NCBI GenBank assembly: GCA_016929235.1
Contig: JAFGJD010000004.1
Span: 128,866-171,163 of the forward strand
Direction of reading: 5' to 3'
Length of the DNA stretch: 42,298 bases
From: Candidatus Babeliales bacterium
Lineage (GTDB): Bacteria; Babelota; Babeliae; Babelales; JABCYS01
In this document: positions 1-27,047 of the stretch, one piece after another
Layout of the letters: each line of letters begins with the position of its first letter
Position numbering within the stretch: position 1 is the first letter of the stretch
The notes under the pieces: model-generated
The model's database searches: none
Seen by the model: the letters and a program-made list of their open reading frames with translations, nothing else
What the model was told of the DNA's origin: nothing
Translations under genes and position numbers: made by a program

Positions 1-942
1 GCTGTTAGTATGGCATTGTATCGTGCACAAAGTATTCAGGAGCAGGTTTCACTGTATGAGATTATTGCATGGTGGTGTGGCAGAGAATCGGTTGCTATGC
101 CAATCCCTTTGTTTAATGTCATTAACGGCGGGGCACATGCAGATAATAATCTCTTGATACAGGAAATTATGGTGGTTCCTGTTGGTGCGCAAAATTTTAG
201 GGATGCCCTTGAATGTTCAATTGTCCTTTATCATGAACTTAAAGCTATCTTGAAAAAGAAGGGCAAAAGTATTGCGGTTGGTGATGAAGGTGGTTTTGCT
301 CCCCAGTTTTCTGATGAAATCGAAGCTCTTAATATATTAAATGAGGCGCTCCTAGCTTGTGATAAACAGCGTAGCAATATCTTCTCTGTTGCGCTTGATA
401 TGGCTGCATCACAGTTTTATAAACCACGCTTAAAAAAATATGACTGGCATGGTGACCAGGTTACGGCAGACCAAATGATTGAATATTACGAACAGCTGAT
501 TGATAACTTCCCTATCTATTCTATTGAAGACGGACTTGCAGAAACTGATTGGGCTGGATGGAAAAAAATGATGAAAAGGCTTGGTGACAGGGTACAAATT
601 GTTGCTGATGATCTTACGGTTACCAATCCTAAATTCATTGAAAAATGCGCAAACGAACAAGCAGCCAATGCCGTGATTATTAAACCAAATCAGATTGGTA
701 CAGTGACTGAAACTTTGCAAGCAATGCAGATAGCTGAAGAACGGGATATGAATATTATCGTATCTCATCGTTCGGGAGAAACCGAAGATACATTTATTGC
801 TGATCTAGCAATTGGTGCTATGGCAGGACAATTCAAAGCTGGTGGTTGTGCGCGTGGTGAACGTATGGCGAAATACAACCGCTTATTGCGTATAGAAGAT
901 ACGTTGATGAATCTTATGATGGATACGAAACTTACAGCGTAA
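1..942 (+). CDS. eno: Enolase (5'-truncated by window edge)
   Basis: Motifs NVINGGAHADN, VGDEGGFAP, IEDGLAE, IIKPNQIGTVTET, VSHRSGETED, ERMAKYNRLLRIE. Frame is open from base 1 (AVSMAL), so the true start is upstream. Confidence 0.97.
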   Translation, partial: AVSMALYRAQSIQEQVSLYEIIAWWCGRESVAMPIPLFNVINGGAHADNNLLIQEIMVVPVGAQNFRDALECSIVLYHELKAILKKKGKSIAVGDEGGFAPQFSDEIEALNILNEALLACDKQRSNIFSVALDMAASQFYKPRLKKYDWHGDQVTADQMIEYYEQLIDNFPIYSIEDGLAETDWAGWKKMMKRLGDRVQIVADDLTVTNPKFIEKCANEQAANAVIIKPNQIGTVTETLQAMQIAEERDMNIIVSHRSGETEDTFIADLAIGAMAGQFKAGGCARGERMAKYNRLLRIEDTLMNLMMDTKLTA

Positions 943-3800: not shown

Positions 3801-5251
3801 ATTGACTCCACATCTTTGCTAAGGGTAATGGTAATATTGAATGCAGGTTCCTGTGGCCGAGATACGGTGCCGAGCTGTGCCTTATTCAGTTCTTCCTCGA
3901 ATATCACGAGGGCAGGAATGTCTTTGACTTCTCCCTTGAGTGTGATGAGGTCATGGGTTATCGTGAGATTTTTTAGTTTTAGCTCTGTACTCTCTGTATC
4001 GATCGCCCCGCAAAGTTTCTCGAGATATGTTAGGAATGAAGAGCGGGTTGAACGTGAAAAGGCAAACCAAATTCGATTCTGTGTTTCAACATAACTTTGT
4101 GCTTCTTCGACAAGGCGCTCAACGTTTCGTTCACCAGAAACGTTGAGATTACTTTGGATGGTATTTTTGAGTTTCTGTTCAGATTGTTTAATAGACATTT
4201 CTACTTTAGTGAGTTGCATCTGGCTAATTGTAAACAGCATAATAATGGTAGTGATAAAAAGCCCTAGTGCTGTAAATAGTTGTTGTGCAAATAGGTTCAT
4301 GCTTGGCTTCTCAAATTCCTGGCTCATCAAGGAGCAATATTCAGAGGCATCATTAGGGAGGCTGAGTACGCAACTTATTAGTGCGTCATTTGTTATTTCT
4401 ATGTTGCCCAGGATCCCTTCTTTATTAATAAACGAAGTCCCCTCTAAGATGGTAACGGGCATATTTAGTTTTGAATGCAGGTCTTTCTGAACATTGATTA
4501 GGTTATTTCCTGAACAAATAAAGAGTTCTGTGACCTCTGGGCCAATCCTACCAAAGCTAGTTAACGTTTGGCCTATGCTACTAATAGTTTCTGTAGTGAA
4601 TTCTGATTGCGTTTTGATAGTACGACAGTCAACGAGTTGTCCATTCTTGATATACCCAATGTTGATATGATTCATGCCGAGAATGATTAATGCAGCGGTA
4701 GTTTGTGCTGGGGCATTACATTGTTTCCATATTTCATAAGCTGCAAAAAGGTCGACAATGATACTGGTAGGAGTTAAGCCTCCAGCCTCAAGCTGTGCTA
4801 TGTGTTCAGCAACGTGTTGCTTTTGTGTAGCGGCGACTAAGATTGTTGAATGATTCGTTCCCTTTTCAGTGATGATAAAATCAAGTAGTGCATCCTGCGT
4901 AGAAAAAGGAAGAAGTTTTTCTACCTCATATGGAAGTACCAACTCAATTTTATCCCGGGAAATAAAAGGCAATGTCAGTGAGCGAAATGTTACTAGTGAA
5001 CTAGGGAATGCTGTCCTTAATATATCATATTTCCCTAGTTTGGCCTTAATGTTTGCGAGTGCAGTTGTTAGTGCTTCCGGTATTTCATTGGGTACTGTTT
5101 CTCGAAAGAGTGCTTCGAGCGTTTTGGTTGTCCCATACATATAACTTTTACATGCAATGACTTCGTTAACCCGTATTTCGAGACCAACGGCGCGCTGGGG
5201 AAAGACGTAGTAATCATTCACTTTTTCGGGTAACAGTACATTGCGTATCAT
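3797..5251 (-). CDS. gspL: GspL/PilM-PilN-like protein
   Basis: Actin-like N-domain (AVGLEI, FRSLTLPF, LPYEVEKLLPF), one TM, periplasmic PilN-like end (ITLKGEV). ATGA overlaps with both neighbours. Confidence 0.75.
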   Translation of the reverse strand: MIRNVLLPEKVNDYYVFPQRAVGLEIRVNEVIACKSYMYGTTKTLEALFRETVPNEIPEALTTALANIKAKLGKYDILRTAFPSSLVTFRSLTLPFISRDKIELVLPYEVEKLLPFSTQDALLDFIITEKGTNHSTILVAATQKQHVAEHIAQLEAGGLTPTSIIVDLFAAYEIWKQCNAPAQTTAALIILGMNHINIGYIKNGQLVDCRTIKTQSEFTTETISSIGQTLTSFGRIGPEVTELFICSGNNLINVQKDLHSKLNMPVTILEGTSFINKEGILGNIEITNDALISCVLSLPNDASEYCSLMSQEFEKPSMNLFAQQLFTALGLFITTIIMLFTISQMQLTKVEMSIKQSEQKLKNTIQSNLNVSGERNVERLVEEAQSYVETQNRIWFAFSRSTRSSFLTYLEKLCGAIDTESTELKLKNLTITHDLITLKGEVKDIPALVIFEEELNKAQLGTVSRPQEPAFNITITLSKDVESI

Positions 5252-7560
5252 GATGGCTGCTCTCCTGGCTCTTTGTCAGTCTTTTTGATGTAGTAATCAG
5301 GCTGTGCAATATCAACGCGTCGTTCTTGAAAGCGGCGGCTCATAAAATCATCAAATTCTTCTGTTTTATCATCACTGCTCTTGAAGAACCATCTATGAAT
5401 AGGATCACGTTCTTCTGATCTATCTCGTATGTCATGCATGGTATTGCTCGTATATTTTGCTTTATTTTGTGTATACGAGGAGGCACCACCTTCAGTGAGT
5501 GGCTGGATAATTTCAGGAGTGATAAAAATGAGCAGATTTTGTTTCTCTTTGCTCTTAGATTTGTTTTTGAATAACCAGCCAAGTAGTGGGATATCTCCCA
5601 AAATGGGAATCTTGGTTTGTGTTTCGGTAATCTTGCTTCTGATCAAGCCGCCTATAGCTAATATTTCTTTATTGGCAAGAATGACCTTTGTCTCAACGGT
5701 TTTAATATTACGCGTTGCGTCTGTTGGGTCAGTTGTATTGGTAAACTCGTCAATGCTGATTGATACATCCATCGTAATCATGCCTTCAGAGTTTATCTGA
5801 GGTGTGATTACCACCTTAAGCGATGCCGTTAAGCTATCATCACTGCTAGCGGTATTGGAGCCAGAAATAACCTGACCGACAGCAACCCGACGAGTTTCTC
5901 CAAGCTCGACAGTTGATTGATATTTATTGGCCGTAACAAGAAATGGATTTGATACTATATTGGTTTGTACCTGTGTTGAAAGCATCTTAAAGATTGCCCA
6001 GATATTTCCTTCTTGCCCAAGGGTTAGAAGTGTAGAACCTGCTTCATTGCCCGTAGCAAGACTAATAAGATTAGCCATGATACTGCCAGTTGTTGAATTG
6101 ATGATAGGTGATGTTCCTGAGCCACTTCTGATGAGGCCTGAATTCTGGAAGTTAACATTTGGATTAATCAAGTCGCTTGTTTTATTTCTCATTTGAGAGC
6201 CAAGCACCTTGTTCTTAGATAAGTTGACATCGACAATGAGGACCTCGATTGCAACTTGCGGTTGCATAATATCAAGGCGTTCAATGACTTCCTTTGCTTT
6301 CATGTAGTCATCATAGTTGCCCTTGATAATGAGGCGGTTTCCTTCTGGCTCTGCAGTGAAGGAGATCTTATTGAAATATTTGTCGCCATCGCGAACACTA
6401 CCATGCTGCGCAGGAACGGTACCAATGCCAAATTGTGTAACGTTGTTTAAGATAGTTGCCATGCTTGTAGCATTAGTATGTTGAAGATCGTATACATACA
6501 ATGGAGAAGGGGAACCGATAACTTCGACATCTACTTTTTTGATAAATTCTTCTAGTTTTTGAATTGATTCCTTATTTCCGAGTAATAAGAGAGCATTTGT
6601 TCTTGGTTCTGCAAGTACACTTGTTGATTGCGGGAATAAGAACGACTCTTGGTTTCTTCTGCCGCCAAACAACTGCGCGAGTTTACTTCGCGCTTCTTCT
6701 GTTGGTTTGACCAGATCACTGAATAACTTTTGGATATCTTCAGCATGGGCATACTGCAGTTTCACTACTGAGAGCATTTCAGGCATTTGCGTTGTATCAA
6801 GCTCTTGAACCACTTTCATGAGAGCCTTGATATTGTATGATTTGTCAGTGATGACCAGTGCTCTTAGATTGATAAATGAGCTTAGTGATGAGGTAACGCC
6901 GCGGAGTTGGTCAAGAATAGGGGAAAGACTTTCGACAGAGGTATTTTGTAAGAAGTAGACATATCGAATGCGTGTATCGTTATTTGGTAGATTGCGAGGA
7001 TCAGTACCAATATATGTTGGAAGGGCAACTTTATTTGCCTTGTCGGCCGATGCAGCAACTATCCGATGAACATCGGGGTATGGCGTTTCTGCCAATGAAA
7101 AACCTGCCATATCAAGAAAGACTGTGAACAGGTCCCATGCCTTCTGCCTAGTCATTGGACGCTCTGTTCTAAAAGAAATTTTATGTCCTGAGATGCCGCG
7201 ACCTCCCTGTGATATTGGGTTGACCGAATCGTCCATGATGAATGAAACATTGAATAGATCAGCCATATAATTGATTACATTACTCAATTCAGCGTCTTGG
7301 AAATTGAATTCTATTGTTGCGTCTTCGCCCTCAGCCTGTTCAAGCATGGCATCAATCGTTTTATCAATTTTTTGCTCAGCAGTAAGCGGAGTTGCTTGTG
7401 GTTGAGCTGCAGGAGTTATTGCTTTTTTGCGAGACTTTTTCGTGAGTGAAGATTTTATGCGTCGTTCTGGTTTTTGGGCAGAAAGCAACGACGTTCCCAT
7501 GCCGCATAATATAAGCAGGATTGTGAATGTCGTTGCGATTATGTGTCGTAGACCTTGCAT
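5248..7560 (-). CDS. gspD: Type II secretion secretin GspD, first copy
   Basis: Signal peptide, N0 (IEFNFQDAEL), N1-N3 repeats (AEPRTNALLL), LDIMQPQVAIEVLIVDV, KIPILGDIPLLGWLFK, NLLIFITPEII. Confidence 0.93.
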   Translation of the reverse strand: MQGLRHIIATTFTILLILCGMGTSLLSAQKPERRIKSSLTKKSRKKAITPAAQPQATPLTAEQKIDKTIDAMLEQAEGEDATIEFNFQDAELSNVINYMADLFNVSFIMDDSVNPISQGGRGISGHKISFRTERPMTRQKAWDLFTVFLDMAGFSLAETPYPDVHRIVAASADKANKVALPTYIGTDPRNLPNNDTRIRYVYFLQNTSVESLSPILDQLRGVTSSLSSFINLRALVITDKSYNIKALMKVVQELDTTQMPEMLSVVKLQYAHAEDIQKLFSDLVKPTEEARSKLAQLFGGRRNQESFLFPQSTSVLAEPRTNALLLLGNKESIQKLEEFIKKVDVEVIGSPSPLYVYDLQHTNATSMATILNNVTQFGIGTVPAQHGSVRDGDKYFNKISFTAEPEGNRLIIKGNYDDYMKAKEVIERLDIMQPQVAIEVLIVDVNLSKNKVLGSQMRNKTSDLINPNVNFQNSGLIRSGSGTSPIINSTTGSIMANLISLATGNEAGSTLLTLGQEGNIWAIFKMLSTQVQTNIVSNPFLVTANKYQSTVELGETRRVAVGQVISGSNTASSDDSLTASLKVVITPQINSEGMITMDVSISIDEFTNTTDPTDATRNIKTVETKVILANKEILAIGGLIRSKITETQTKIPILGDIPLLGWLFKNKSKSKEKQNLLIFITPEIIQPLTEGGASSYTQNKAKYTSNTMHDIRDRSEERDPIHRWFFKSSDDKTEEFDDFMSRRFQERRVDIAQPDYYIKKTDKEPGEQPS

Positions 7561-13546: not shown

Positions 13547-14023
13547 ATGAGTATGCAGCGGATGGTGGCGTTTCTTCTGTGCCTGATGATAGCACGGCCT
13601 GTGCTTGCTGAGTTAACTATATCTGAACCTAATCAAACAGCCCCGGCGGGGGAGTCATTTCAACTCAAAGATACATCTTTACCACAAAATTTTACGATAC
13701 AACGTGGCATGACGATGCAGAAAGCAAGGGTGCTTGGGCGCTTTTCTCCCTACGTCGCTGCTGCCGCAGTTGTTATGTATATTGTTGGAGCGAAAGCTTT
13801 CATCATGGCACCTCCATGGTCGATTGTTATTCTTATTGGATTAACTGCGGATTATATCTTTGAGACACTGATTTTCAGTAATAAATTCAGTTCAAAATTG
13901 GCCCCGTTTGCCCTTGTTTCAATGCTAATGAAACAAAATAAACAATTTGGAAAACATGTGGCACAATTCTTGCCTTTACCTAATGATGCAGAAGAGGGTG
14001 TATCTGTCGAAGCAGTGAATTAG
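13547..14023 (+). CDS. Hypothetical membrane protein with signal peptide
   Basis: AGGAGG RBS before ATG 13547; signal-like N-terminus ending VLA, plus 2-3 hydrophobic segments. Confidence 0.7.
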   Translation: MSMQRMVAFLLCLMIARPVLAELTISEPNQTAPAGESFQLKDTSLPQNFTIQRGMTMQKARVLGRFSPYVAAAAVVMYIVGAKAFIMAPPWSIVILIGLTADYIFETLIFSNKFSSKLAPFALVSMLMKQNKQFGKHVAQFLPLPNDAEEGVSVEAVN

Positions 14024-15270
14024 TGTGCATTTCTATGCAGACGATGGTACGTAATAGCAAAATGGTGAGCGTAGTCGCGCAGTGCGATGAGTAGCTTTTC
14101 CGCTTGTTCGTGGATGTCGAGCAATTTTCCTTCTGGATGCCTTTCACTAAATACGCGTTCCTCTCGCTTGGCTAAGCTGATACATGGTCGTGAAATGTTG
14201 AGTTTTAGGATGGCGTTTAGTTGTCCCTTGCCTCCATCAATTAGAATCAAATCTGGCAGATCATTATTTTTATAACGACGTTGCACAATCTCTTGAAGTG
14301 CCGCATAGTCGTTCTGTTGTGTTAGGCTCTTAATCTTGAATCGACGAAACTTATTTTTGTCTGGGATACCGTTGGCGAATCTAACACACGAGCCTACCAG
14401 TGATGTGCTTTGAAAATGTGAAATATCAAAACAATCGATGATACGAGGTGGCTGAGGAAGATCGAGTAACGCTTGTAGGTGTTCTACTGTTGTTTCGTTT
14501 TCAACGATGTTTGACGTTGGTGCAGTTGCCCGGATCGTTTCATGGCGATAAGTTTGTTCATGATACTTAGTTTCTAGTGTTGCAAAAATGGTTACGCTGT
14601 CTTGAAGATAGGTGTTGAGTTTCTGTGCCTTCTCAAACGCTAAGGCATCATTATGGACCTTAATTTTGTTTCGCAATGTCTGTGTGAATTGTTCCGTATT
14701 ACCTTGTAATGCTTCGCGTGCAAGCTCGAGTCTTGTGAGGTAGGCATCTTTATCAAAGTCATCTCGACATGAACCAGCACAGATATCGAGGTGGTAGTCG
14801 AGACACCCCTGCGGGATTTTGCTTGTACATAACTTTAGACGAAAAGTTGTGGCAAGATATTCGTACACACTACGTGCATCTGATTTATACAGGAATGGTC
14901 CAAAGTACCGTCCCTTAGTTTTCTTGGTGCGTACAATCTTCAGAGTTGGCAATGTTTCTTCTGTAAAAAGAAGATATACAAAGGGCTGTCCATCTTTGAG
15001 GAGGGTATTGAACTTGGGCTGATGCTCTTGAATGAGCTGCGCCTCAAGTAGGGCAGCTTCTGTTTCTGTAGGAGTTGTGATGACCGATACATCATGTACA
15101 ACCGCCTGAAGAGCCTTTAGCTTGAGATCATCCTTTGGTTCTTGAAGATAGGATTTTACGCGAGTACGGAGTGAGGTTGCCTTGCCAATGTAGACAATTC
15201 GGCCTTGATCATCCTTAAACAGATACACGCCAGGAGATAAGGGTAAGGTTTTTATATGCAGATGCTTCAT
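14020..15270 (-). CDS. uvrC: Excinuclease UvrC lacking C-terminal HhH domain
   Basis: GIY-YIG (PGVYLF...YIGKA..LRTRV), 4-Cys cluster, UVR-like segment (LAFEKA), RNase H-like domain (FDISH, LIDGGKGQL, RDYAHHFA). Likely start 15270. Confidence 0.92.
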   Translation of the reverse strand: MKHLHIKTLPLSPGVYLFKDDQGRIVYIGKATSLRTRVKSYLQEPKDDLKLKALQAVVHDVSVITTPTETEAALLEAQLIQEHQPKFNTLLKDGQPFVYLLFTEETLPTLKIVRTKKTKGRYFGPFLYKSDARSVYEYLATTFRLKLCTSKIPQGCLDYHLDICAGSCRDDFDKDAYLTRLELAREALQGNTEQFTQTLRNKIKVHNDALAFEKAQKLNTYLQDSVTIFATLETKYHEQTYRHETIRATAPTSNIVENETTVEHLQALLDLPQPPRIIDCFDISHFQSTSLVGSCVRFANGIPDKNKFRRFKIKSLTQQNDYAALQEIVQRRYKNNDLPDLILIDGGKGQLNAILKLNISRPCISLAKREERVFSERHPEGKLLDIHEQAEKLLIALRDYAHHFAITYHRLHRNAH

Positions 15271-15325
15271 GTTCTCATGATAAACTGACCAAAGCCTCTC
15301 AGCAAGCGCCAATGGAGCGTTTGCT

Positions 15326-15392: not shown

Positions 15393-15743
15393 ATGCGGCG
15401 GTTTCTGTTTTCTTGTATGACTATGATCGTAGCTCTTATTACCCTTGCCGACCAGCAGGTTTCTCAGGAACTACCAGCTCTACATGAACGGCTCTTGCTT
15501 TTTATTGAACGTAATAGCTTGTTTATTGGTGCCTTGGTATACCTCATGACCTATGATCATTTTGGTGATTGGTGGGGAAATGCCCTGCAAAAGCTTTTTG
15601 CTGTGAGATATCTTATGGTGTTGTTTGGCTCCAGTTGCCTGGTAAAATATCTCACCAAGTACATCTTGGGAGCGGTCCACATACCAGAGATGGATGAGGA
15701 ATTAGAGGACGTGGCGAAAAAGCTCTTATATTATACGGCTTAA
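15393..15743 (+). CDS. Small hypothetical membrane protein
   Basis: Own promoter, AGGGA RBS, signal-like N-terminus and two hydrophobic stretches; followed by a terminator. Confidence 0.7.
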   Translation: MRRFLFSCMTMIVALITLADQQVSQELPALHERLLLFIERNSLFIGALVYLMTYDHFGDWWGNALQKLFAVRYLMVLFGSSCLVKYLTKYILGAVHIPEMDEELEDVAKKLLYYTA

Positions 15744-15807: not shown

Positions 15808-18800
15808 TTAAAATCCATCATTATCGTCAGCCCACTCTAGGACAATACCAGAACTGACGGGTTCGGTTCCTGAGGCGTTTGCCTGTTGTTCATTGAGACT
15901 TTGTTCAGGTGCTCCCGTTTCACCAACGTTACCTTCGCCAGAGCCCGTATCGGATGTGGGCGGTTCTGATACATTTTGGGAGTTGGTTGGTACAACAGTT
16001 GGCAATGCATCAGTTGTTTGTTCTTGCGCTGGTTGTGCTTGATATGCTGCTTGTGAAGCTTCGATTTTTGTTTTGAGATTAGTAGATACAATGGATTGAT
16101 AATGCAGAGAATAGATTCGTGTGAAGCCTGTTTGGACCGGTTCTTCTTGTGCGGCTGTATAAGCGCTTCCGCTAACCAGGCTAATGATCCCATTGATATC
16201 AGATGTATATGGCATACCAAACTCGGCAGGCATATTGCTTGCATCTAGGTGTGCCATCACAACATAATCTGCATCAGCTGTGGTATCTGGTTTGATGGCA
16301 GTATAGATAAATACATTATTACCAAGATCAACTAGGCTGCTTGCCTGAAGTCGGTAGGATCCAAAATCAAACGGACCTTGTACAGTTGCAGTATATGCTT
16401 GTTGTAAGGTTACAATGCTTGAGCGTGTGGTATCGTCAATATGGCCATATCGTTGTTCGTATGAGTTGAGCACGGTACTTACCGTATCTGTCACTGTTCC
16501 TCCGGAATCATAAACCTTACCGGTTACTAAACTGACAACACAGTTGCCATCAGTTGGCAGGCACCCAATATCGTTGATCTCGCCAGCGCGTCGTCGATTA
16601 GCAAATACCACATAATCTTGTGTGGCTGCACCCTGTGCGTCGTTGAGTTGTGTACTTGGTGTTGTGTACATGAATTGGCTTAACATGAGATCAGTATCAC
16701 TTACCGCGGTCAGTACGAATGAGCCAAATTGTGGCGATTTACTTTGTGCACGCGCAGCACGCCTGTCTAGTTCACGATCAATTTCATTTTGTTCACGATC
16801 CTGACCGCGAAGCTTTGGTATTGTTTGTGCGGTTATTTCAGGCGATAAGAAGTCAAATTCTACGGATGCTCCTGAGGCAATAAATCCTAAGGTTGTTTCA
16901 TTGGTAGGGGTTACGGCTATGGATGAAAATCCTGGTTCTGTTTCTCCTTCTTTCCATATTTTGACTTGAAGTGTTGAACCGCTAAGTTGTGCCTTCATGC
17001 GATACCATGCACCGACTTCAAATGCAGGGCCTGATAGAGTTCCTTGATACCAGTTGTCGTTGAAAGTTTCTAGCGTGGTGTCATGTTCATACAATCCTAT
17101 GGTTGATGGGGATTCGGCCAGTGTTTTTTTATATACAAACATTTTAGCCAAATGTGCATGGTTGATGATTGTGTCAGATGATGCATTTAGTTCTTCAACT
17201 GTTTCAAATGGTTCTCCACCCAGATATAAACCAATGTGATACGTGCTGAGCACATACTGTGCTTGCCAACGAACCTCCACCTCTGCAAGACTAGATACAG
17301 ACGTTACGACCTTCTGAAGGAACCAGTATTTGGATTCAGGTGAGCTTGATGCAGTGTCATCGGCCGGTTCTACCGTTGAAGGAGATACTGCAATTTCTTG
17401 GCTATATGACTTCCTGCCGTCATTATAGACCGTGAATCCTTGCCCTGGATTCAAATCATTGACTCTTGTTCTAAATCCATAAAGTGAACCGACATCGGCT
17501 GGGATTGCGCCGGTATTTTGATCAGCCGTTAATAACGCAATGTTATAAGCACGAAGATTCTGTGCGAGCTGGCCCTTCGTGCTTTCATAGCGGTTTCCAA
17601 GAAATCCTTGATAGAAGCCAAGAGATCGTTCCATGTTACTGATTTGTGCGCCATATTTTTTATCAAGTTCATCTGCCATCACCTGTTGCAAATGAATCAT
17701 GGTGCTCTCAGTATTGTTGATGAACGTTTCATAATTGGCGACAAATGCATGCTGTTCTTGTTTGCGCTCTAATGCGGCTTCATCTTGTTGTCCTCCACCG
17801 ATTGCGCCAAAAACGCCAAAGGCTGCATCAAGTGTAAGGCCGATACCAAGGATCAGTGGGCCTCCTCCAAGTGCGATCGTAATCACTGCGAATTCTATGC
17901 CAAGAACAATATTGAAAAGTAGGCGCCTGTGGTCTGCTGCCCAGGCGGCAGATTTAGATCGCTGCCACGCATCTACAATATTTTGTCCCTCTACTACAGT
18001 GTGATACAAAGTCTCCAAGCCCCTTACGACGTCTAGAATGACATCTAAGATATAATTTGTAAGGTAGGCGATAAACTTGATTGCATCCTGAAGAATATCT
18101 AATAACTTATCTCCTATGAACGTGAGACTGCTGAGAATTGCGACACCCATGTCTTCGACAATATTTTTAAAATTATTTCCCCATTCGCCGAGGCTTTGTT
18201 CGCCAATTATGACTTCAATTCCTCCAACTAGTAGGTTATTAACGATGCGTATAGTGTCAAAGCCAAGCCTAAAAACCGTGCCGTGAAGTTTCATGACGCC
18301 ACCCGTTACACCCTCAATGGCGTCTACGACTATATCAGCTGCACTATTGAAAAGAGATTCAAATTCTGCCTGTAGAGTTGGATCTCCAAAGCCTAAAACA
18401 AAGCTTAAGCCTGCACCAACGGAGTGTAGCGCTCCTCGCTCAGCTTCCCCAAGATCATTAATAATGGCAACAATGCTATCATTTGCTTTGCCAAACGCTT
18501 TGGATGCCTCATCCATAAGTGCTTGATTGCCGGTGAAAAATCCAACTGTTCCCTTGCTAACGCCCTCCCAAGTGTCAGTAGCCCAATTTGCAATATCTCC
18601 TGGGACATCGGAAAGCGCGTCAACTGCTTCCTTTCCTCCCTCTACTATGCCATCCCAGACATCACTTAAATAGTTTTGTGGAACAACTGTTTCGTTTCGT
18701 GATGTAGATACTGATGAAAGGATAATGTCCTCATTTTCATCATCTTGGAAGGTAATAGGCTGTAGCGTTTCAGTATCATACGCAGCAATGGATCGGCGGG

Positions 18801-19839
18801 TGTCATTAAGCTCGCTAAGGTACACATAGTCATCGAGAGTGTAGGGCAAGATGGATGGTGTGGGGCTACTAGCTGCAAGTGCGGTCATGGTTTGCGAGAA
18901 TTTATCGCGATTAAAGAGTGGATTTAATTTTTTTTGTAATGCTGCTGCCATATGAATGGCTGTAATATAATGGGCTTCGATAGCCGTCAGAGCACCAAGA
19001 GTTGCGTGGTCCGCATTTATTGAATCATCCGACGTTGTCACAAATTGTTCTGGTTGGGAAGCTGCTTGGTAGAATGGTGTTGCTATATAAACTTTGATCT
19101 GATTTGAGAGAGCCGCAAAATTATTTGCGGTTGTTGACCAGGCATCATCAGCGCAGCTTGCTGCAAGGCGTTGTGTTACTGATCGAAGCAGGACGAGATA
19201 ATGTCGCATAAAGTCGATCGTATACCATGTATTGCGGCAGTCTGTTTGATGTATGGCAACATCAAGGTCGGGGAGATATTTATAGGTGCCAAGCTGAAAC
19301 GAGTTTGCATTAGAGGCAATTGATTCCATTTGATTAAATAGCTGAGCAAGCGTGTATTTGATATATGTTTGCCATATAGCTGATGCTTTTACCTCATCGG
19401 CGGTGATGGTTAATTGCGCAAGCGTAGTATTGAGTTGTTGTTGCGCAGTAGAGATAGCCTCATTCCAAGTTGTTTGTTCTGTAGCGGCCGAGTTGTTTTT
19501 ACCAATTGTAGCGATTTTAAGTGCACGCAAAGTGGTTAAAATTTCCTGTTTTTGTGACTCAGACCCTTTTTCATATTTAGCCAGTGTTTCTAAAAAAGCA
19601 TAAAACGATTTTACATACATTACTGTGATGGGATCGGTCGCGGCAAGATTAACTCCTCCTGATCCAAAAAACTGGTCGAGTTTATCCGCGTTGAGCGAAT
19701 CTGAAAGTTGAGTATATCCAGCAAATGCTGTATTCAGAGCATTATTGAGAGTTGCGTCAGATAAAGAAAGATCTTGGTTTTCTTGTGAAAATAACAAAAG
19801 CGTGCTGGCAAGCGGTATTATAAGGGATAGTTTTTTCAT
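15808..19839 (-). CDS. Large exported protein (1343 aa) with hydrophobic hairpin, coiled coil, lectin-like domain and two C-terminal repeats
   Basis: Long ORF with signal peptide. Gly-rich hydrophobic hairpin at aa ~640-683; GAWYRMKAQLSGSTLQVKIWKEGETEP beta-sandwich motif. ATGA-coupled to the upstream gene. Confidence 0.9.
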   Translation of the reverse strand: MKKLSLIIPLASTLLLFSQENQDLSLSDATLNNALNTAFAGYTQLSDSLNADKLDQFFGSGGVNLAATDPITVMYVKSFYAFLETLAKYEKGSESQKQEILTTLRALKIATIGKNNSAATEQTTWNEAISTAQQQLNTTLAQLTITADEVKASAIWQTYIKYTLAQLFNQMESIASNANSFQLGTYKYLPDLDVAIHQTDCRNTWYTIDFMRHYLVLLRSVTQRLAASCADDAWSTTANNFAALSNQIKVYIATPFYQAASQPEQFVTTSDDSINADHATLGALTAIEAHYITAIHMAAALQKKLNPLFNRDKFSQTMTALAASSPTPSILPYTLDDYVYLSELNDTRRSIAAYDTETLQPITFQDDENEDIILSSVSTSRNETVVPQNYLSDVWDGIVEGGKEAVDALSDVPGDIANWATDTWEGVSKGTVGFFTGNQALMDEASKAFGKANDSIVAIINDLGEAERGALHSVGAGLSFVLGFGDPTLQAEFESLFNSAADIVVDAIEGVTGGVMKLHGTVFRLGFDTIRIVNNLLVGGIEVIIGEQSLGEWGNNFKNIVEDMGVAILSSLTFIGDKLLDILQDAIKFIAYLTNYILDVILDVVRGLETLYHTVVEGQNIVDAWQRSKSAAWAADHRRLLFNIVLGIEFAVITIALGGGPLILGIGLTLDAAFGVFGAIGGGQQDEAALERKQEQHAFVANYETFINNTESTMIHLQQVMADELDKKYGAQISNMERSLGFYQGFLGNRYESTKGQLAQNLRAYNIALLTADQNTGAIPADVGSLYGFRTRVNDLNPGQGFTVYNDGRKSYSQEIAVSPSTVEPADDTASSSPESKYWFLQKVVTSVSSLAEVEVRWQAQYVLSTYHIGLYLGGEPFETVEELNASSDTIINHAHLAKMFVYKKTLAESPSTIGLYEHDTTLETFNDNWYQGTLSGPAFEVGAWYRMKAQLSGSTLQVKIWKEGETEPGFSSIAVTPTNETTLGFIASGASVEFDFLSPEITAQTIPKLRGQDREQNEIDRELDRRAARAQSKSPQFGSFVLTAVSDTDLMLSQFMYTTPSTQLNDAQGAATQDYVVFANRRRAGEINDIGCLPTDGNCVVSLVTGKVYDSGGTVTDTVSTVLNSYEQRYGHIDDTTRSSIVTLQQAYTATVQGPFDFGSYRLQASSLVDLGNNVFIYTAIKPDTTADADYVVMAHLDASNMPAEFGMPYTSDINGIISLVSGSAYTAAQEEPVQTGFTRIYSLHYQSIVSTNLKTKIEASQAAYQAQPAQEQTTDALPTVVPTNSQNVSEPPTSDTGSGEGNVGETGAPEQSLNEQQANASGTEPVSSGIVLEWADDNDGF
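16035..16737 (-). repeat. Two diverged ~115-120 aa tandem domains (protein-level repeat)
   Basis: FGSFVL..S..DL...FMYT...DYVVFA...VVSLVTGKVY...QQAY versus FGSYRL..S..DL...FIYT...DYVVMA...IISLVSGSAY...QAAY. Confidence 0.85.
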
Positions 19840-21401
19840 GACGAGCTCCTTTGCTGTAGCTTCGTTGTTACCAGCGTCTTAAAGGTATCAAGTTGATTTT
19901 GCGTATAGCGAAGCTCTTCTGGTTTTTTTACTGTGAATTCTGCTACACAACCGGGCGCCATAAATCCTATACCTCCATACAAAAATCCAAACTGTTCTAG
20001 GTTGTTGATGGTTGTATATTCAAGCGGTTCATTTGCTTGGGTTTCTTGTTCTGTGGCTCCCTGTTCCCACACTTTAAACGATACTTGGTTTGCTGCAGTT
20101 CGTATTTTGAAGATAAGTCGTAGAGTTCCTTCGTTTAATTTTTGTAATTGTTCTTCAGTGAGGACCTGGAAAGCTTGTGACTCAGGTTCGACTAATTGTT
20201 TGATTGGTGTGGTTATAGATAACCCGTCTGCAGTGTTACGAATAATTGTTTGCGCAAAATGAACCGATGCTGCTGGAACATTGTTTATGTTGGTTCCATA
20301 TAATCCGAGTAGTCTGTATTGACGCATACGCTCTGGGCTTCCTGATAACCAACGAGCTTTATTGAACATTATGCCGAGGCAGAATGGATATGAGACGCGA
20401 TGCGGGGTGCATGCAATTTCAATCTCATAGCCGTTAGATGCTGTGACATATTCTGAAAAGATCGAATTATTTTGCGCGTATTCTGGGCTCTTAGGATCAC
20501 TTTGATCAAAGAACGTTTGTAGTTGTGTTTGTATAAATGAATTTGTTGATTCATTAAATTGCCAGTCTCCACAACGTGATACGTTATACCAGCTATAACG
20601 ACCGCTTGGAGTAAACATTGGTGAGTGTGCAAACGCTTTATCCAAATTGATTTGATCGATCAACATCATTTGTTTTGGTAGAGCGATATTGAGAGACTTA
20701 TCTAATGTCATAAGTTGTCGTTCTACTGTAGAACCGCTAGCTTCGTATTGTGCTTCAAGCTGTTCTTGTGCTGCTGCAAAATTACCTGCAAGTTGAGCAA
20801 ATATCGTTTCTTGTTCAACCTGTGCATCATCTATGAACGTGTCGAAGTTTTCTTCGAGGGTTTTACGTTTTTCATCTATGACAGCAAACTCATCCGCGTC
20901 TTTTTGATCTTCCCATTGTGTTAGCATGCCAAGAGCCATTCCAACAGGGAGATACGCTATGATGATGCTAATGGGATTATGAAGAATCTTGCTCATAAGG
21001 GTTGGCATTGCTTGAGTAGCTACATCTCGAATTATTGTTCTTTGGAGAGCTTTTTCAACCCAGCTTGTTCCCATATGTTCAAGTGCAGCTTCTACCGATG
21101 TTCGCATCTCGGCAATTGCTGCGGATCTGGCAAGTTGTTTTGCTGCTACTTTCTCCGCGACTTCCTTTGCGGCTTCTCGCGCGGCAGCGTATGCCGCCTT
21201 TAGTACGGTTCTTCTGATAGCAAGTTCTCCTACAAATGCAGCAATTTTCCCCGCGGCTTCAACCAGAATTGCTCCTATACCCTGTACAATCACGATCTCA
21301 TTGCGTGGTGCGATAGGCGTTTCTGGAATGGTATAGTGATAAACAAAAAACGATGTTCCAAGGACTACGGTGAGGGATGCAGCTAGTACTTTTTTCTTCA
21401 T
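19836..21401 (-). CDS. Exported/anchored protein (521 aa), apparent paralog of the central part of the 1343-aa protein
   Basis: N-terminal signal or anchor, amphipathic Ala-rich helices, one hydrophobic segment, coiled coil, beta-rich end (VSFKVWEQGATE...IGFMAPGCVAEF). Confidence 0.88.
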   Translation of the reverse strand: MKKKVLAASLTVVLGTSFFVYHYTIPETPIAPRNEIVIVQGIGAILVEAAGKIAAFVGELAIRRTVLKAAYAAAREAAKEVAEKVAAKQLARSAAIAEMRTSVEAALEHMGTSWVEKALQRTIIRDVATQAMPTLMSKILHNPISIIIAYLPVGMALGMLTQWEDQKDADEFAVIDEKRKTLEENFDTFIDDAQVEQETIFAQLAGNFAAAQEQLEAQYEASGSTVERQLMTLDKSLNIALPKQMMLIDQINLDKAFAHSPMFTPSGRYSWYNVSRCGDWQFNESTNSFIQTQLQTFFDQSDPKSPEYAQNNSIFSEYVTASNGYEIEIACTPHRVSYPFCLGIMFNKARWLSGSPERMRQYRLLGLYGTNINNVPAASVHFAQTIIRNTADGLSITTPIKQLVEPESQAFQVLTEEQLQKLNEGTLRLIFKIRTAANQVSFKVWEQGATEQETQANEPLEYTTINNLEQFGFLYGGIGFMAPGCVAEFTVKKPEELRYTQNQLDTFKTLVTTKLQQRSSS

Positions 21402-21409
21402 CTATGTTC

Positions 21410-22792
21410 CTAACTACTCATACGTAAGATAATGCCTTCAGTTTCCGGCTTGAGAATATTGAGGCCGATCAGTGCGGTGAAATCTCCAAGACATCCACGG
21501 GTTACCTTAATAATGTCGTCAGGAGAGTTGAGCCATGTAGGCTGTCTTAATAACTCTTGTTCGAAGATTGCATTTCCAGAAGGCATGTTAACAAATAAAG
21601 CTTGTGCTCCTCCTTGACTACTTATTTCATTTCCTTGACTGTCCTTAAAGAAGGCAACCCTAAATGGCAGTTCGGCATTTGTTGCTGCATTCCGTGCATG
21701 TGTTCCTTGAACAGCAGCGGTGACGTATTGTACGGGCCAGTCTATGAGTTGAGATGTTGTAGGAATATTTTCAATAAGCAGAGGAATGACTCGTACGGCA
21801 CGGATAGTTCCTTGTGATGGAAAGAAAAATTGAGGTACAATTGGTTTATTTTGTTCTTGATACGATTTGACTAATGTTCTCATGGATGTCATATCGCGTA
21901 CTAGTTCATTTTCTCCAAGATATGCTTGCGCTGTCGGTTTTTGTAAAATGAGATTGGTGTAGGTTCTAAAGAGGTTGAAGTAAGTGCCAAAGATTTGTTT
22001 ATAAGCCGCCTGTTTATTTTTAACTGCTTCTCGTGTTGGAGCATCTAAGTTAAGGCCCGTTTCCATAGTAGCATCGTCGATTGTAAGAAGTGTCAGGTTC
22101 ACATTTGTGTCATTGTGAAGGATGGTTTTGCCTGTAAAAGCCGCGATCGATTTTGGAAGAGCTGAAAAGAGCGCTTGAGAAAATTTATATGACTGTGCAT
22201 CAACAATGTTAATTAAGTGCTCAACAATAAGAAATTTTTCGTTGAATGCGTATTGTTGTTCATAGGTAACGAATGTATCAAGAGTATCAATTTTGGTGAG
22301 GATAAAAGTTGCAAGTATTTTTTTTAGATGACTGTATAGTTGGCGCAAAACAGTTGTATACATCTGCTTTAGATACACATAAAAAATTGGATCTTGAGCA
22401 ACACTTGTTTGCAGTGATGAGAATGATGATGCAAGCGAGCCGTTATTTGGGAAAAATTGTGATGCGGACGGGTAATTATTTTGAAACAGGTTTGGAATAT
22501 CTGAAATGCAAAATCCACCCCCAATGGCCATCATACCAAACTGGGCGGCAAATGGAGTATTGTATCGGTTATCGTCATTTTTCTTTTCTAAGGTTCCATC
22601 GGGACGTGCAAGTGCATTCAGTAGTTGAGCATCAGTGAATGCTCGCGTTGTGCTGCCCGCCTGCTCTTCTTGTTGATCAGTTGGAGTAATGTCATTTGTA
22701 TCAATGTCGTCCATCGATGGACCGTCATCGAGTGCTTGTATTAGGGCACCGTGCAATGCACAGTAGGCAAGCACGAAAATCCATCGCTTCAT
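21410..22792 (-). CDS. Exported hypothetical protein (460 aa), first gene of the three-gene operon
   Basis: AAGGAG RBS, signal peptide ending IQA, acidic N-terminus, mostly helical-looking; 8 bp gap to the next gene. Confidence 0.88.
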   Translation of the reverse strand: MKRWIFVLAYCALHGALIQALDDGPSMDDIDTNDITPTDQQEEQAGSTTRAFTDAQLLNALARPDGTLEKKNDDNRYNTPFAAQFGMMAIGGGFCISDIPNLFQNNYPSASQFFPNNGSLASSFSSLQTSVAQDPIFYVYLKQMYTTVLRQLYSHLKKILATFILTKIDTLDTFVTYEQQYAFNEKFLIVEHLINIVDAQSYKFSQALFSALPKSIAAFTGKTILHNDTNVNLTLLTIDDATMETGLNLDAPTREAVKNKQAAYKQIFGTYFNLFRTYTNLILQKPTAQAYLGENELVRDMTSMRTLVKSYQEQNKPIVPQFFFPSQGTIRAVRVIPLLIENIPTTSQLIDWPVQYVTAAVQGTHARNAATNAELPFRVAFFKDSQGNEISSQGGAQALFVNMPSGNAIFEQELLRQPTWLNSPDDIIKVTRGCLGDFTALIGLNILKPETEGIILRMSS

Positions 22793-24366: not shown

Positions 24367-24726
24367 ATGATGAGATATCAACCCTTTCTTTTTGTTGCAT
24401 TGTTAACTGGTGTTGCATGCGCTGATCGAATTATTGAGGTTGATACTAATATTGAGACAGACCTTACATTGGCGCACCAACAGCAGTCCCTGTTTCAATG
24501 TGTGTTTTCTTCTATTGTTCCAGAGGAAGAAGTGCCGAATTTTTCACCGACAGACTGGTCGTTCTTGTCAGAATATATGAGCTGTCTTTCAGAGAGCGCA
24601 CTTGAAGAAGTGGTGGGTAACGCTTATGCGGAAGTAAGGGAGTTTGTTTCAGTTATTACTGAATCATATGAGGCGAAATGGAGACGCATGCTCATGCAGC
24701 AGGCGTATGCCATTATGGTGAGGTAG
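24367..24726 (+). CDS. Small exported hypothetical protein
   Basis: GAGGA RBS, signal peptide ending ACA, acidic helical body; heads the pil-like cluster. Confidence 0.7.
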   Translation: MMRYQPFLFVALLTGVACADRIIEVDTNIETDLTLAHQQQSLFQCVFSSIVPEEEVPNFSPTDWSFLSEYMSCLSESALEEVVGNAYAEVREFVSVITESYEAKWRRMLMQQAYAIMVR

Positions 24727-24745
24727 CGAGGATAGTAGTGATGTT

Positions 24746-25306
24746 ATGTATTTCATATCTCAAAATAACAGAGTGTATTCATATCTCATTCGAATGTCAC
24801 AGCCAGTATGGTATGTGTTAACAATCGGATGTGGTCTTCTGTTGAGCTTGGTGTGGTGGAAGAGTTGGTATGAGCCGCTTTCGTCTAAAGAGACAAGGTT
24901 CCACGGAGAATATAAAACGCTTTTACAGCAACAAGATGCCTTTGCACGTATTCAGCATGCGAATAAAAAGCTCAAAGATGAAGTTACTTCCTTAGAGGTT
25001 TCGATTACTGATTATCTTGCCCATGTGCATCCTCATGAAATTACTCTCAAAAAATTTATCGACAAAGCACTTGAAGCAGGGCTAACTTTGATTTCCTATG
25101 CCCCGAAGGAAAGTATTGCGACCAAGTGGTACATGATTCATGAAGTCGAGGCTGGGCTTATTGGTTCATATGAAAATATCGTGCGGCTTTTGCATGTTCT
25201 TTCTATTCGCCAAGATTTGCTGGTAATCAAGTCGTTTTCTATTCGTAATGATGGCGACAAGTTGTACTTGTATTGTACCATTCGTGTAAGTGAGGGGTTA
25301 GTATGA
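24746..25306 (+). CDS. pilO: PilO/HofO-like protein
   Basis: TM plus coiled coil plus AGLTLISYAP...LIGSYENIVRLL PilO-type pattern; upstream of a secretin. Confidence 0.7.
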   Translation: MYFISQNNRVYSYLIRMSQPVWYVLTIGCGLLLSLVWWKSWYEPLSSKETRFHGEYKTLLQQQDAFARIQHANKKLKDEVTSLEVSITDYLAHVHPHEITLKKFIDKALEAGLTLISYAPKESIATKWYMIHEVEAGLIGSYENIVRLLHVLSIRQDLLVIKSFSIRNDGDKLYLYCTIRVSEGLV

Positions 25307-25704
25307 AGTATCGGATAGTCCTGGTGTGTTTCATGAGTGCAGCTATTGCTTGTAGTGATATGAAAGAGCATGTATTGCCGCTTGAGCTTGGTAATACACA
25401 GCGGGATCCGTTTGTATGGTCTACGGCTAAAGGAAAAGAGTCTTCCAAAGAAATCATACAAGAGGAACCTATTGTTAATGCGCAGCTTGAGCCGGAGGTA
25501 AGGGTTATTGAAAAACCAGCATGGCGCGTGTTCGGAGCTGCTACAACAAAACGAGATGCATACGCGTTATTGCGAGATGGTGATCACCAGCGGCTCGTAG
25601 AAGCCGGTGCAGATGTTGGTGGTGGATGGAGGGTATCGGAAATTACCACTCATAAAATCATGTATGTACATGAGACAGGAGAGCAATGGATCGTTGGAGT
25701 CTAA
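25303..25704 (+). CDS. pilP: PilP/HofP-like lipoprotein
   Basis: Lipobox-like AIAC, RDPF motif, WRVFG..AYALL..V..GADV..WRVSEIT beta domain. Confidence 0.72.
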   Translation: MKYRIVLVCFMSAAIACSDMKEHVLPLELGNTQRDPFVWSTAKGKESSKEIIQEEPIVNAQLEPEVRVIEKPAWRVFGAATTKRDAYALLRDGDHQRLVEAGADVGGGWRVSEITTHKIMYVHETGEQWIVGV

Positions 25705-27047
25705 TTGTTATAGCATGCTCTATCGGTGTAGGAGTGCATGCTTCCTCAGAAAAGACCTATGATGCGGAAATCATCTGCCAGCTGTCTAACATATTCAAGC
25801 ATAAAGGCCTGGCAGATTGTAGGTTGACCTTGGTATCACAGCCGGGAAATATCAATGAATGTTTGACCCTACTACGTGCTGCATCTGGTCAGGATATTAT
25901 GATAGACCAGCATCTTGCAGGAGAGTGCGGGGCATTTCACTTCTCTGATAAGACGGTAGGCGAAATACTAGACGTGATTTGTTCAAGTTACTCACCGCGT
26001 CTAGCACTGGTATCACAAAGTGGCGTATGGCGCTTGGTTGCATACGATGCTGCATATGAACACTTGAAATCGCAACAAAAAACACAACTGATTCAAAGAG
26101 TGTTTTCGTTAAAACATGCACGATGCGATGATGCATTTATCGAGAAAGTGCAAACAATCTGGAATCTTATTATTAGAGAACAAACTGATGTTGATGCGGC
26201 ATATTGTACGATTGATACAGAGAGCAAGAAAATCTTTGTCAAAGCGCCTAAGAATGCATTAGCTGAATTTGAAAATTTCTTAAAAGAGATTGATTGTGCA
26301 AAACCACAGGTTCGCATCGATGCACTTGTAGCCATTGCAGACAAAAATTACGAGTATGGTCTTGGTATGAATTGGTCAGGTATCTATGACCGGCAAGCAA
26401 GTATGAATGGCAAGTTTGATCTTGCGACCGTTGGTGCAACCGCTGAAAATTATGGCATTAATTTAGTACGAAAGCATGACAGTCCTTTGACGCTTCCGCT
26501 TACGTTTGGTGGTCCGGATCTCAATATTTTGAAACTCAATGTTGAACTACATGCAGCTGAAAATGAAGATCGTGTTCGTATTTTATTAAAACCTTCAGTA
26601 CTTACTAGTCATGAAGAAACTGCAGAGATTCTTATTGGTAAAAGCTTTCCTATCAAAAATATTATAAAAAAGGGCGATGATAAGGCCCCGCCAATTCATA
26701 CTATCGAATACAAGGACATTGGCACTATCTTGAACGTAAAACCATCTGTGAGCCCGAACCAACAAACAGTTCTTTTGGATATTTGGGTTGAAGACTCTGC
26801 TGTAGCCAGTCTTGCCTCTGCTGATCAGGCTCCTATCATCAAAACCATTCGAACAAAAAATAAAGTATTGCTTAAGAGTGGGCAAACGACAGTAATCGGT
26901 GGTTTGATGTTGAATAAACAGGAGCATACGAAGGTTGCTATCCCGGGGCTTGGTAAAGTTCCGTTACTCGGGTGGATGTTTAAGCATGATAAAAAAATAA
27001 AAGAAGATAGCGAGCTGTTGATTTTTATTACACCAACAATTGTGTAA
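25686..27047 (+). CDS. pilQ: Short PilQ/HofQ-like secretin
   Basis: IDCAKPQVRIDALV, YKDIGTILNVKP, LKSGQTTVIGGL, IPGLGKVPLLGWMFK, ELLIFITPTIV at the C-terminus. No AMIN domains apparent. Confidence 0.85.
   Translation: MDRWSLIVIACSIGVGVHASSEKTYDAEIICQLSNIFKHKGLADCRLTLVSQPGNINECLTLLRAASGQDIMIDQHLAGECGAFHFSDKTVGEILDVICSSYSPRLALVSQSGVWRLVAYDAAYEHLKSQQKTQLIQRVFSLKHARCDDAFIEKVQTIWNLIIREQTDVDAAYCTIDTESKKIFVKAPKNALAEFENFLKEIDCAKPQVRIDALVAIADKNYEYGLGMNWSGIYDRQASMNGKFDLATVGATAENYGINLVRKHDSPLTLPLTFGGPDLNILKLNVELHAAENEDRVRILLKPSVLTSHEETAEILIGKSFPIKNIIKKGDDKAPPIHTIEYKDIGTILNVKPSVSPNQQTVLLDIWVEDSAVASLASADQAPIIKTIRTKNKVLLKSGQTTVIGGLMLNKQEHTKVAIPGLGKVPLLGWMFKHDKKIKEDSELLIFITPTIV

Follow-up and report, generated by a model that had tools for sequence, protein, structure and literature searches.

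A conserved three-gene operon of the Babeliales that encodes two proteins with concanavalin A-like domains

The DNA analysed here (the window) is a stretch of 42,298 nucleotides on contig JAFGJD010000004.1 of a Candidatus Babeliales bacterium. The genome from which it comes is 809 kb long, is 99.3% complete and belongs to the Dependentiae/Babeliales. Dependentiae are widespread, obligate parasites of protists, with tiny genomes and many exported proteins of unknown function. Our subject is a cassette of three consecutive genes in this window, called A, B and C in the direction of reading, which is kept together in related genomes and whose two last genes encode proteins with a concanavalin A (ConA)-like domain.

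The three genes and their products

The layout of the cassette is as follows; the genes are given as open reading frames (ORFs).

21410-22792, minus strand: gene A, 460 aa
22733-22792, minus strand: signal-like N-terminus of the product of gene A, residues 1-20
19836-21401, minus strand: gene B, 521 aa
15808-19839, minus strand: gene C, 1343 aa
15778-15802, no strand: GC-rich hairpin of 10 bp found by a consensus scan, between the stop of C and a convergent ORF at 15393-15743

Inspection of the sequence shows that the TAG stop of A is followed by 8 nt and then the ATG of B, and that the TGA stop of B overlaps the ATG of C as ATGA. The hairpin behind C is, from its sequence, likely a two-way terminator. 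A preliminary description of this DNA had spoken of three tightly coupled genes with a shared terminator, and the coordinates, the 8-nt gap, the ATGA overlap and the hairpin were all verified. About 130 nt upstream of A there is a promoter-like consensus site; the match is weak, and such sites are rarer in the region than in shuffled sequence. Among the sequencing runs listed, this DNA is found in one sediment metagenome, which may be its source, and in no RNA run; two RNA runs from the study of that metagenome contain almost none of its sequence words.

We take A, B and C to be real genes rather than chance ORFs, because their orthologs in other genomes, which are 22-40% identical, keep both length and order. 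For C the same follows from its C-terminal half. An exhaustive hidden Markov model (HMM) search with this half matches 181 representative clusters at E ≤ 0.001, of which 118 reach E ≤ 1e-30; almost all of these 118 clusters consist of proteins of 1300-2700 aa in which the matched region lies near the C-terminus. A word-indexed homolog search was shallow (5 matches for C and 4 for A, the query itself counted in each). The named homologs are from metagenome-assembled genomes of uncultured Candidatus Dependentiae, Babeliales or Chromulinivoraceae, with a few under other submitter labels, and the annotation given by the sources is "hypothetical protein".

The N-termini of all three proteins consist of a lysine/arginine n-region followed by a hydrophobic h-region, as expected from the export signals that had been noted on them earlier. 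By a simple rule of our own, which asks for these two regions and is not a formal predictor, signal-like N-termini are found in 8/9 A, 14/28 B and 8/9 C family members, and several of the B members that fail the rule appear to be cut at the start. Two of the 28 B-family members (P0009 and P0011) have a lipobox (LAGC, LSGC) in the place of a plain signal peptide. Export signals by themselves are ordinary in this group, because about 44% of the coding sequences of a cultured Dependentiae member carry signal peptides, as stated in passages of PMC6561590.

The three proteins had been said to match no recognisable family, and the searches agree. Pfam and NCBIfam, at E ≤ 1, return no family for A, B or C except DUF4452 for C, with an E value of 0.25, and the Pfam cut-off is reached by none of 24 orthologs or distant relatives. 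A PADLOC search of A, B and C gave no match, and the PHROGs collection yielded no usable family for any of the three. Sequence profiles of the three families compared with the PDB gave nothing below E 0.015, and the matches that appeared are designed or generic helical proteins. In the ESM Atlas there is no feature match for A (the Atlas model has a predicted local distance difference test (pLDDT) value of 0.34, and the structural matches a TM-score of at most 0.22), and residues 385-790 of C give one unnamed cluster at 0.77, which is below lead level. The operon is also absent from the available passages of PMC4776705 and PMC6561590, whose supplementary tables may list the genes as hypothetical orthologs. 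Judged by sequence, the three protein families and one repeat domain of C are thus undescribed in the libraries searched.

Beyond residues 1-20, A is a novel protein without detectable kinship to B or C, and comparisons of A with B and of A with C, the latter by BLASTP and hhalign, reveal no relation. The N-terminal domain of C was considered as a relative of A and rejected (BLASTP E 0.37, hhalign E 0.22).

C is the largest of the three. Its parts are listed below; the structural assignments are from an AlphaFold2 (AF2) model of residues 61-1260, built from 13 sequences and with a mean pLDDT of 56, and hydrophobicity is given on the Kyte-Doolittle (KD) scale.

18790-19632, minus strand: all-helical N-terminal domain of C, residues ~70-350, AF2 pLDDT mostly 60-85
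17932-18687, minus strand: Gly-rich helical region of C, residues 385-636, AF2 helices with pLDDT <50
17791-17931, minus strand: strongly hydrophobic, Gly-rich two-helix hairpin of C, residues 637-683, KD maximum 2.23
17530-17790, minus strand: main part of the long helix of C, residues 684-770, AF2 pLDDT ~25-37
16837-17496, minus strand: ConA-like beta-sandwich of C, residues 782-1001, AF2 pLDDT 75-90
16054-16752, minus strand: tandem domain of ~110 aa in two copies, residues 1030-1262 of C, AF2 pLDDT 70-85
15811-16053, minus strand: low-complexity tail of C, residues 1263-1343

The whole region 352-786 is all-helical in the model, with pLDDT <50, and its Gly-rich part includes moderately hydrophobic helices at 527-545, 564-584 and 586-608. 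Of the about 45 residues of the hairpin, 11 are Gly, and a conserved H-R-R stands just before its first helix; the second helix is continuous with the long helix, so that a single helix of ~107 residues (about 664-770) is modelled. A strongly hydrophobic segment is present at the aligned place in 9/9 C orthologs (KD maximum 1.69-2.75); ortholog lengths are 1440-1715 aa. In two of the orthologs, both from family f5 (genes at L041:1994-7057 and L042:3711-8753, both on the minus strand), the hairpin helices are split by 135-220 charged, low-complexity residues. The insert is Ala/Glu/Lys-rich in one of the two and Pro/Asp/Glu/Lys-rich in the other.

The ~110-aa domain has the motif S-L-V-T/S-G-x-x-Y, and the tandem is modelled as two alpha/beta domains at 1035-1260. 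The two copies are a duplication (36% identical over 77 aa, E 3e-7). The domain recurs in P0174 and in P0155-type proteins (1500-1950 aa, without Pfam matches), and we regard it as an undescribed repeat-domain family. P0174 is encoded in the same genome (contig C3, L063:5850-11231, minus strand) and is a stand-alone exported protein of 1793 aa with several copies of the domain, in which the motif reads S-L-V-T-G/S-x-x-Y; it also has Ala/Gly/Glu-rich helices and a hydrophobic segment. C orthologs end, past a low-complexity linker, in a conserved R-x-x-x-A-x-G ... G-G that may be a sorting or docking signal; the copy described here ends in …DDNDGF.

We also considered C as a phage tape measure protein on account of a match to phrog_167 (E 3.6e-4), yet tape-measure PHROGs are matched by only 2/13 C-family members, each by a different one, and tail-fibre PHROGs by 2 further members. 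As the match is not reproduced across the C family, it is read as a compositional likeness. A Foldseek search of viral structures gives matches solely to LamG/ConA-like receptor-binding parts of phage proteins.

B begins with a signal- or anchor-like N-terminus, and amphipathic helices come after it. The AF2 model of B (28 sequences, mean pLDDT 72) is helical up to residue 237, at low to middling confidence, and contains the following parts.

20916-20987, minus strand: hydrophobic segment of B, residues 139-162, KD maximum 1.8
20691-20906, minus strand: single long predicted helix of B, residues 166-237 (72 residues), AF2 pLDDT ~56-65
19914-20621, minus strand: ConA-like beta-sandwich of B, residues 261-496, AF2 pLDDT mostly >88

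Hydropathy shows two hydrophobic stretches in B, at residues 36-62 and 139-162. The equivalent of the second one reaches a KD value of at least 1.5 in 7/28 family members, and in the remaining members the segment before the helix is amphipathic and rich in Met, Gly and Ala. Across the aligned family the conserved core consists of this pre-helix segment, the long helix and the sandwich; the helical extension at the N-terminus is missing from family forms of ~400 aa. The polar residues D254, Q291, N347, R350 and R363 are conserved, and we point to them as candidate binding residues.

The sandwiches of B (261-496) and C (782-1001) both have the ConA-like fold. In VIA-align searches they retrieve identical top solved chains at near-equal scores, namely CBM66, a carbohydrate-binding module (CBM), of Bacillus subtilis SacC (4b1m; Z 14.4, root mean square deviation (rmsd) 3.0 and 159 aligned residues for B; Z 14.3, rmsd 3.1 and 155 aligned residues for C), the L-lectin-like C-terminal domain of thrombospondin (2rhp; Z 13.6 for B and 13.8 for C) and ECA2234 (3mep; Z 13.0 and 13.7). 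The superpositions have Z values of 13-14.4 over 155-181 residues, the domains are modelled at pLDDT 75-97, and Foldseek agrees with the assignment of both. The structural matches also include a second thrombospondin structure (1ux6) and two bacterial adhesins, SraP (4m01) and YwfG (7yl4), by their L-type lectin modules. On the other hand, identity to the matched chains is 8-14%, and none of them shows the arrangement of B and C, in which the domain comes after a hydrophobic segment and a long helix (70-105 residues). The curated families of the ConA clan (LamG-like, 3-keto-disaccharide hydrolase/DUF1080, CBM) are not matched by B or C in Pfam or NCBIfam; the last strands of C give weak profile matches to LamG-like repeats of large glycan-active proteins (E 7e-14 to 7e-6). 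In solved examples the ConA-like module typically binds carbohydrate, and the models suggest that B and C carry domains of this glycan-binding type.

B and C share more than the fold of one domain. Hydropathy and the AF2 models give them a common order of parts, i.e. hydrophobic segment, very long helix and ConA-like sandwich, and the same order that had been proposed before from the sequence holds here, also in view of the shared top structural matches. At the level of sequence the similarity is weak and confined to the last three strands of the sandwich (BLASTP E 0.01). The comparison by hhalign gives E 9.5e-4 and a probability of 22% with whole profiles, and E 4e-5 with a probability of 70% when the domains are cut out; HMM-to-sequence searches find no cross-match in either direction. 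Homology of the helical parts was considered and is not supported (hhalign E 0.19). Of the motif pairs in the preliminary description, the one in the beta-sandwich can be weakly aligned but the pair NFDTFIDD/NYETFINN cannot (BLASTP E 1.3, with the same hhalign value). Paralogy of the components, as in the alpha-pore-forming toxins, is not borne out: A gives no match to B or C, and B matches C in the last strands of the sandwich alone. It is plausible that the central module of B and C arose by an ancient duplication.

A complex prediction of C 630-1010 with B 135-521 gives a median score of 0.40 (runs 0.47, 0.40 and 0.33), as compared to 0.00 for the best of three controls. The partner has a pLDDT of at least 73, the runs agree in at least 2% of the contacts, and the verdict of the tool is "weak support". 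The mark set for the score is reached by 116/157 solved complexes and 2/215 mismatches, and at values up to 0.60 it is reached by 18/157 and by both mismatches. On these models B and C might pair.

Conservation of the cassette and its chromosomal site

A, B and C are each present in an identical set of 12 out of 41 related genomes. In all 10 loci that were retrieved the three genes share a strand and follow one another as A-B-C, separated by small gaps or overlapping by 4 nt, so the synteny check is in keeping with the earlier view of the three genes as a conserved unit. The operon is intact in at least eight families of the order. A profile search with the B family finds it in 49 out of 261 genomes of the phylum, and the distribution over families is uneven (f5 14/14, f12 14/16, f10 8/10, f15 5/5, f2 4/41, f19 0/80, f11 0/35). 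The cassette was not found in the other 212 of the 261 genomes, including two genomes of the same family that are 92% and 96% complete. In the f12-family loci L043 and L044 all three proteins are enlarged together (A 1169-1183, B 974-984 and C 1709-1715 aa), and C has an insert of ~60 residues within the ConA-like domain.

The surroundings of the cassette are conserved as well. An M23 peptidase gene adjoins A, in divergent orientation, in 10/10 loci, and among the 8 loci that reach past C, 6 have a uvrC-like gene behind it. In cassette-less relatives an M23 ortholog is present in 5/5 cases, at 42-60% identity, and in 3/5 of them the M23 and uvrC-like genes are adjacent or one small ORF apart. 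From the flanks with and without the cassette it follows that the backbone is conserved and that the cassette has a single, fixed position in it. Most simply, the ancestor of the order would have had the cassette, which would then have been lost repeatedly and cleanly.

These neighbours bring up the question whether the three proteins are a housekeeping complex of the cell's own envelope, one that acts on its wall or outer membrane (peptidoglycan or envelope glycans) and is tied to the M23 peptidase, pilus and secretin genes. The constant M23 gene beside the cassette, followed by small ORFs and a secretin, would fit such a role, and so would the fact that the proteins are exported and that C has a likely inner-membrane anchor. 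However, M23 and its neighbours are kept in all five cassette-less relatives, and because this neighbourhood persists without the cassette we read the adjacency as a conserved backbone rather than a functional link; a housekeeping tie to the M23 peptidase is unlikely. Absence from so many genomes, two nearly complete members of the same family among them, is also unlike a core envelope function. We therefore hold the housekeeping explanation as a whole to be rather improbable.

The same data bear on the possibility that A, B and C are three exported proteins, for example separate adhesins or glycan-binding proteins, that share an operon and act independently without forming a complex. The complex prediction is weak, A is unrelated to B or C, P0174 is a stand-alone paralog with the repeat domain of C, and passages of PMC6561590 indicate that the phylum commonly has large exported proteins without a known function. 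Against independent action stand the perfect co-occurrence across the 41 genomes examined, the fixed gene order with start/stop overlaps in several genomes, and the joint enlargement of A, B and C in the f12 family. We consider that there is little chance of this explanation being right.

A possible stalked lectin complex or pore

The reading that we prefer, and which we put forward tentatively, is that A-B-C is a lineage-specific operon of the Babeliales/Dependentiae, located at one chromosomal site, that encodes a Sec-exported, membrane-anchored and stalked lectin complex. The operon probably mediates contact with a membrane or with a host surface. C would be the core of such a complex, with an exported helical N-domain, Gly-rich helices, the hairpin, a helix of ~105 residues, the lectin domain, two repeat domains and a disordered tail. 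B would be a small version of the central module of C, in which the hydrophobic segment is weaker and a helix of ~70 residues leads to the ConA-like domain, and A would be a third exported partner. We speculate that, firstly, the hairpin of C halts transfer in the Sec translocon and so anchors C in the bacterium's own inner membrane; secondly, the long helices of B and C pair as a stalk; and thirdly, the lectin heads, together with the repeat domains, attach to a glycan of the host or vacuole surface or of the cell's own envelope. Of this picture, the unity of the genes, their conservation, the hydrophobic hairpin and the ConA-like folds are shown, and the anchoring membrane, the pairing of B with C, the binding of a glycan and its target are inferred. 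For the time being we class A-B-C as a membrane-anchored multi-protein complex of the lectin/adhesin type.

Anchoring of C in the inner membrane is preferred over insertion into a target membrane for three reasons. The hairpin is very hydrophobic, two C orthologs tolerate long charged inserts in its loop, and some B orthologs have a lipobox. The 135-220 charged residues of the inserts would be easy to accommodate in a cytoplasmic loop, but they would be hard to move across a target bilayer, and this favours anchoring. The lectin complex as such also draws on the ConA-like chains that both sandwiches match, adhesin lectin modules among them, on the weak B-C score and on the markers of other export systems, which were not found (see below).

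There are several points that weigh against the anchored lectin complex and need to be discussed. According to the positive-inside rule, the H-R-R in front of the first hairpin helix would be on the wrong side of the membrane if the N-domain is periplasmic. The extra moderately hydrophobic helices upstream leave the side on which the C-terminal half of C is located undecided, and a lectin head in the periplasm is without an obvious ligand. The T2SS (type II secretion system) encoded nearby could export A, B and C. In the model of C the helical half has a pLDDT <50, the B-C score is weak by the tool's own calibration, and the patchy distribution (49/261) tells us that the system is dispensable and nothing more.

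A different reading of the same parts starts from secretion rather than anchoring. Here A, B and C would be soluble proteins, secreted by Sec and the T2SS, that bind the membrane of a host or vacuole by their lectin domains, after which the hairpin of C, aided by B, inserts as a pore or translocon. The conserved hairpin and the ~250 residues of Gly-rich amphipathic helices in front of it could serve such an insertion, and the order of parts, from a helical region over a lectin-type domain to more binding-type domains, is compatible with it. The three-gene operon with Sec-like signals resembles the layout of Hbl/Nhe of Bacillus. T2SS genes are encoded nearby in the window, and delivery by a T2SS had been suggested before as possible. 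Markers of the T3SS (type III; FHIPEP, PF00771), T4SS (type IV; VirB4) and T6SS (type VI; TssC) gave 0 matches in the 99.3%-complete genome, with control genomes positive. As these markers were not found, another route to the host would be needed. The B-C pairing score (0.40 versus 0.00 for the best control) also counts in favour of a joint action, with the tool's "weak support".

A pore meets several difficulties. No family of pore-formers or translocators is matched in sequence, the fold searches, for which the helical parts are too poorly modelled, gave ConA-like matches only, and the hydrophobic segment of B is present in only 7/28 members. The charged loop inserts of the two C orthologs would need to cross the target bilayer, and segments as hydrophobic as these (KD values up to 2.75) would probably be held up in the Sec channel. 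The cassette is, moreover, present in only 49/261 genomes of the phylum. In our opinion this reading is unlikely but far from negligible. Its most elaborate form, in which A-B-C is a new lectin-targeted host-membrane translocon or pore, exported by Sec/T2SS, with the C hairpin as the core and B as the helper, and in which part of the Dependentiae use it to breach or remodel the vacuole membrane of a protist, we likewise consider unlikely, and slightly more so.

The preliminary description had favoured a pore or translocon by analogy with YaxAB/XaxAB, Hbl/Nhe and SctE/SctB, and this link finds no sequence match in Pfam, NCBIfam or the PDB profiles; the T3SS translocator analogy in particular is at odds with the absence of FHIPEP matches in the genome. 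Of the pair of one protein with two transmembrane segments and one with a single segment, the hairpin of C is found in 9/9 orthologs and the single segment of B in only 7/28 members. The same description had named the loss of gene clustering, assignment to an unrelated known family and lack of structural homology between B and C as grounds for giving it up; the clustering turned out to be conserved, no unrelated known family emerged, and B and C share the ConA-like fold.

It is instructive to compare A-B-C to systems that it resembles in layout. Like Hbl/Nhe of Bacillus cereus, YaxAB/XaxAB and the ClyA superfamily, it combines a tight multi-component operon with a hydrophobic helical hairpin beside long helices in one or more components; with Hbl/Nhe it also shares Sec-type signals. 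ClyA-type toxins are essentially all-helical. A-B-C has no sequence match to the superfamily, A shows no kinship to its two partners, and there are ConA-like domains in B and C and additional beta-rich domains in C. As regards an elongated helical bundle whose head bears the hairpin, the models of B and C have a pLDDT of <50-65 in their helical halves, and the ConA-like domain fills the lists of the fold searches.

The heavy chains of clostridial neurotoxins and other AB toxins resemble C in having a hydrophobic helical region, a very long helix, a ConA-like jelly roll and further domains. The lectin-like subdomain of the neurotoxins is among the Foldseek matches, via the jelly roll only (global rmsd 13-24 Å, TM-score ≤ 0.2). 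However, A-B-C has neither a catalytic chain nor sequence similarity to these toxins, and C has an N-terminal Sec signal. The likeness is an analogy of layout and not one of membership.

SctE and SctB are paired translocators, and chlamydial Inc proteins have a bilobed hydrophobic domain. Like them, C has a hydrophobic unit of two helices (~47 residues), with a long helix behind it, and B is like the partner of SctE in that some members have one hydrophobic segment. The differences are that FHIPEP was not found in the genome, that A, B and C have Sec-like N-termini, and that there is no sequence match.

The operon bears on how Dependentiae attach to and manipulate host membranes, given that T3SS, T4SS and T6SS markers were not found here and that uncharacterised exported proteins are many. 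It is one of few multi-gene units of unknown function that are kept intact across at least eight families, and it joins two needs of a host interface, i.e. a conserved membrane-inserting element and lectin-type heads. With A, B and C and the repeat domain of C, our analysis adds three protein families and one domain that are undescribed in the libraries searched. Were the complex a self-anchored adhesin only, it would be a modest addition to the known lectin adhesins; perforation of host membranes would make it a translocon of a new class.

Neighbouring genes in the window

Other features of the window that were referred to above are the following.

932-3241 and 5248-7560, minus strand: two tandem GspD-like secretins
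24367-25704: three small ORFs upstream of the short secretin and beside the M23 gene, no family named
25686-27047, plus strand: third, short secretin of 453 aa, matched below cut-offs by PilQ and GspD models
14020-15312, minus strand: short UvrC homolog of 430 aa with GIY-YIG and RNase H-like endonuclease domains

According to passages of PMC4776705, TM6 genomes have gspD in two copies and lack pilQ. The remaining neighbours include GspC/L/M-like genes, MoxR, MlaE/F, triose-phosphate isomerase, HerA, F1-ATPase beta, Lon and MurJ; F1 beta is the sole ATPase with the fold of the T3SS ATPase in the window. The UvrC homolog scores above the cut-off of TIGR00194 even though it is shorter than the 574 positions of the model, and copies of similar size are conserved in relatives.

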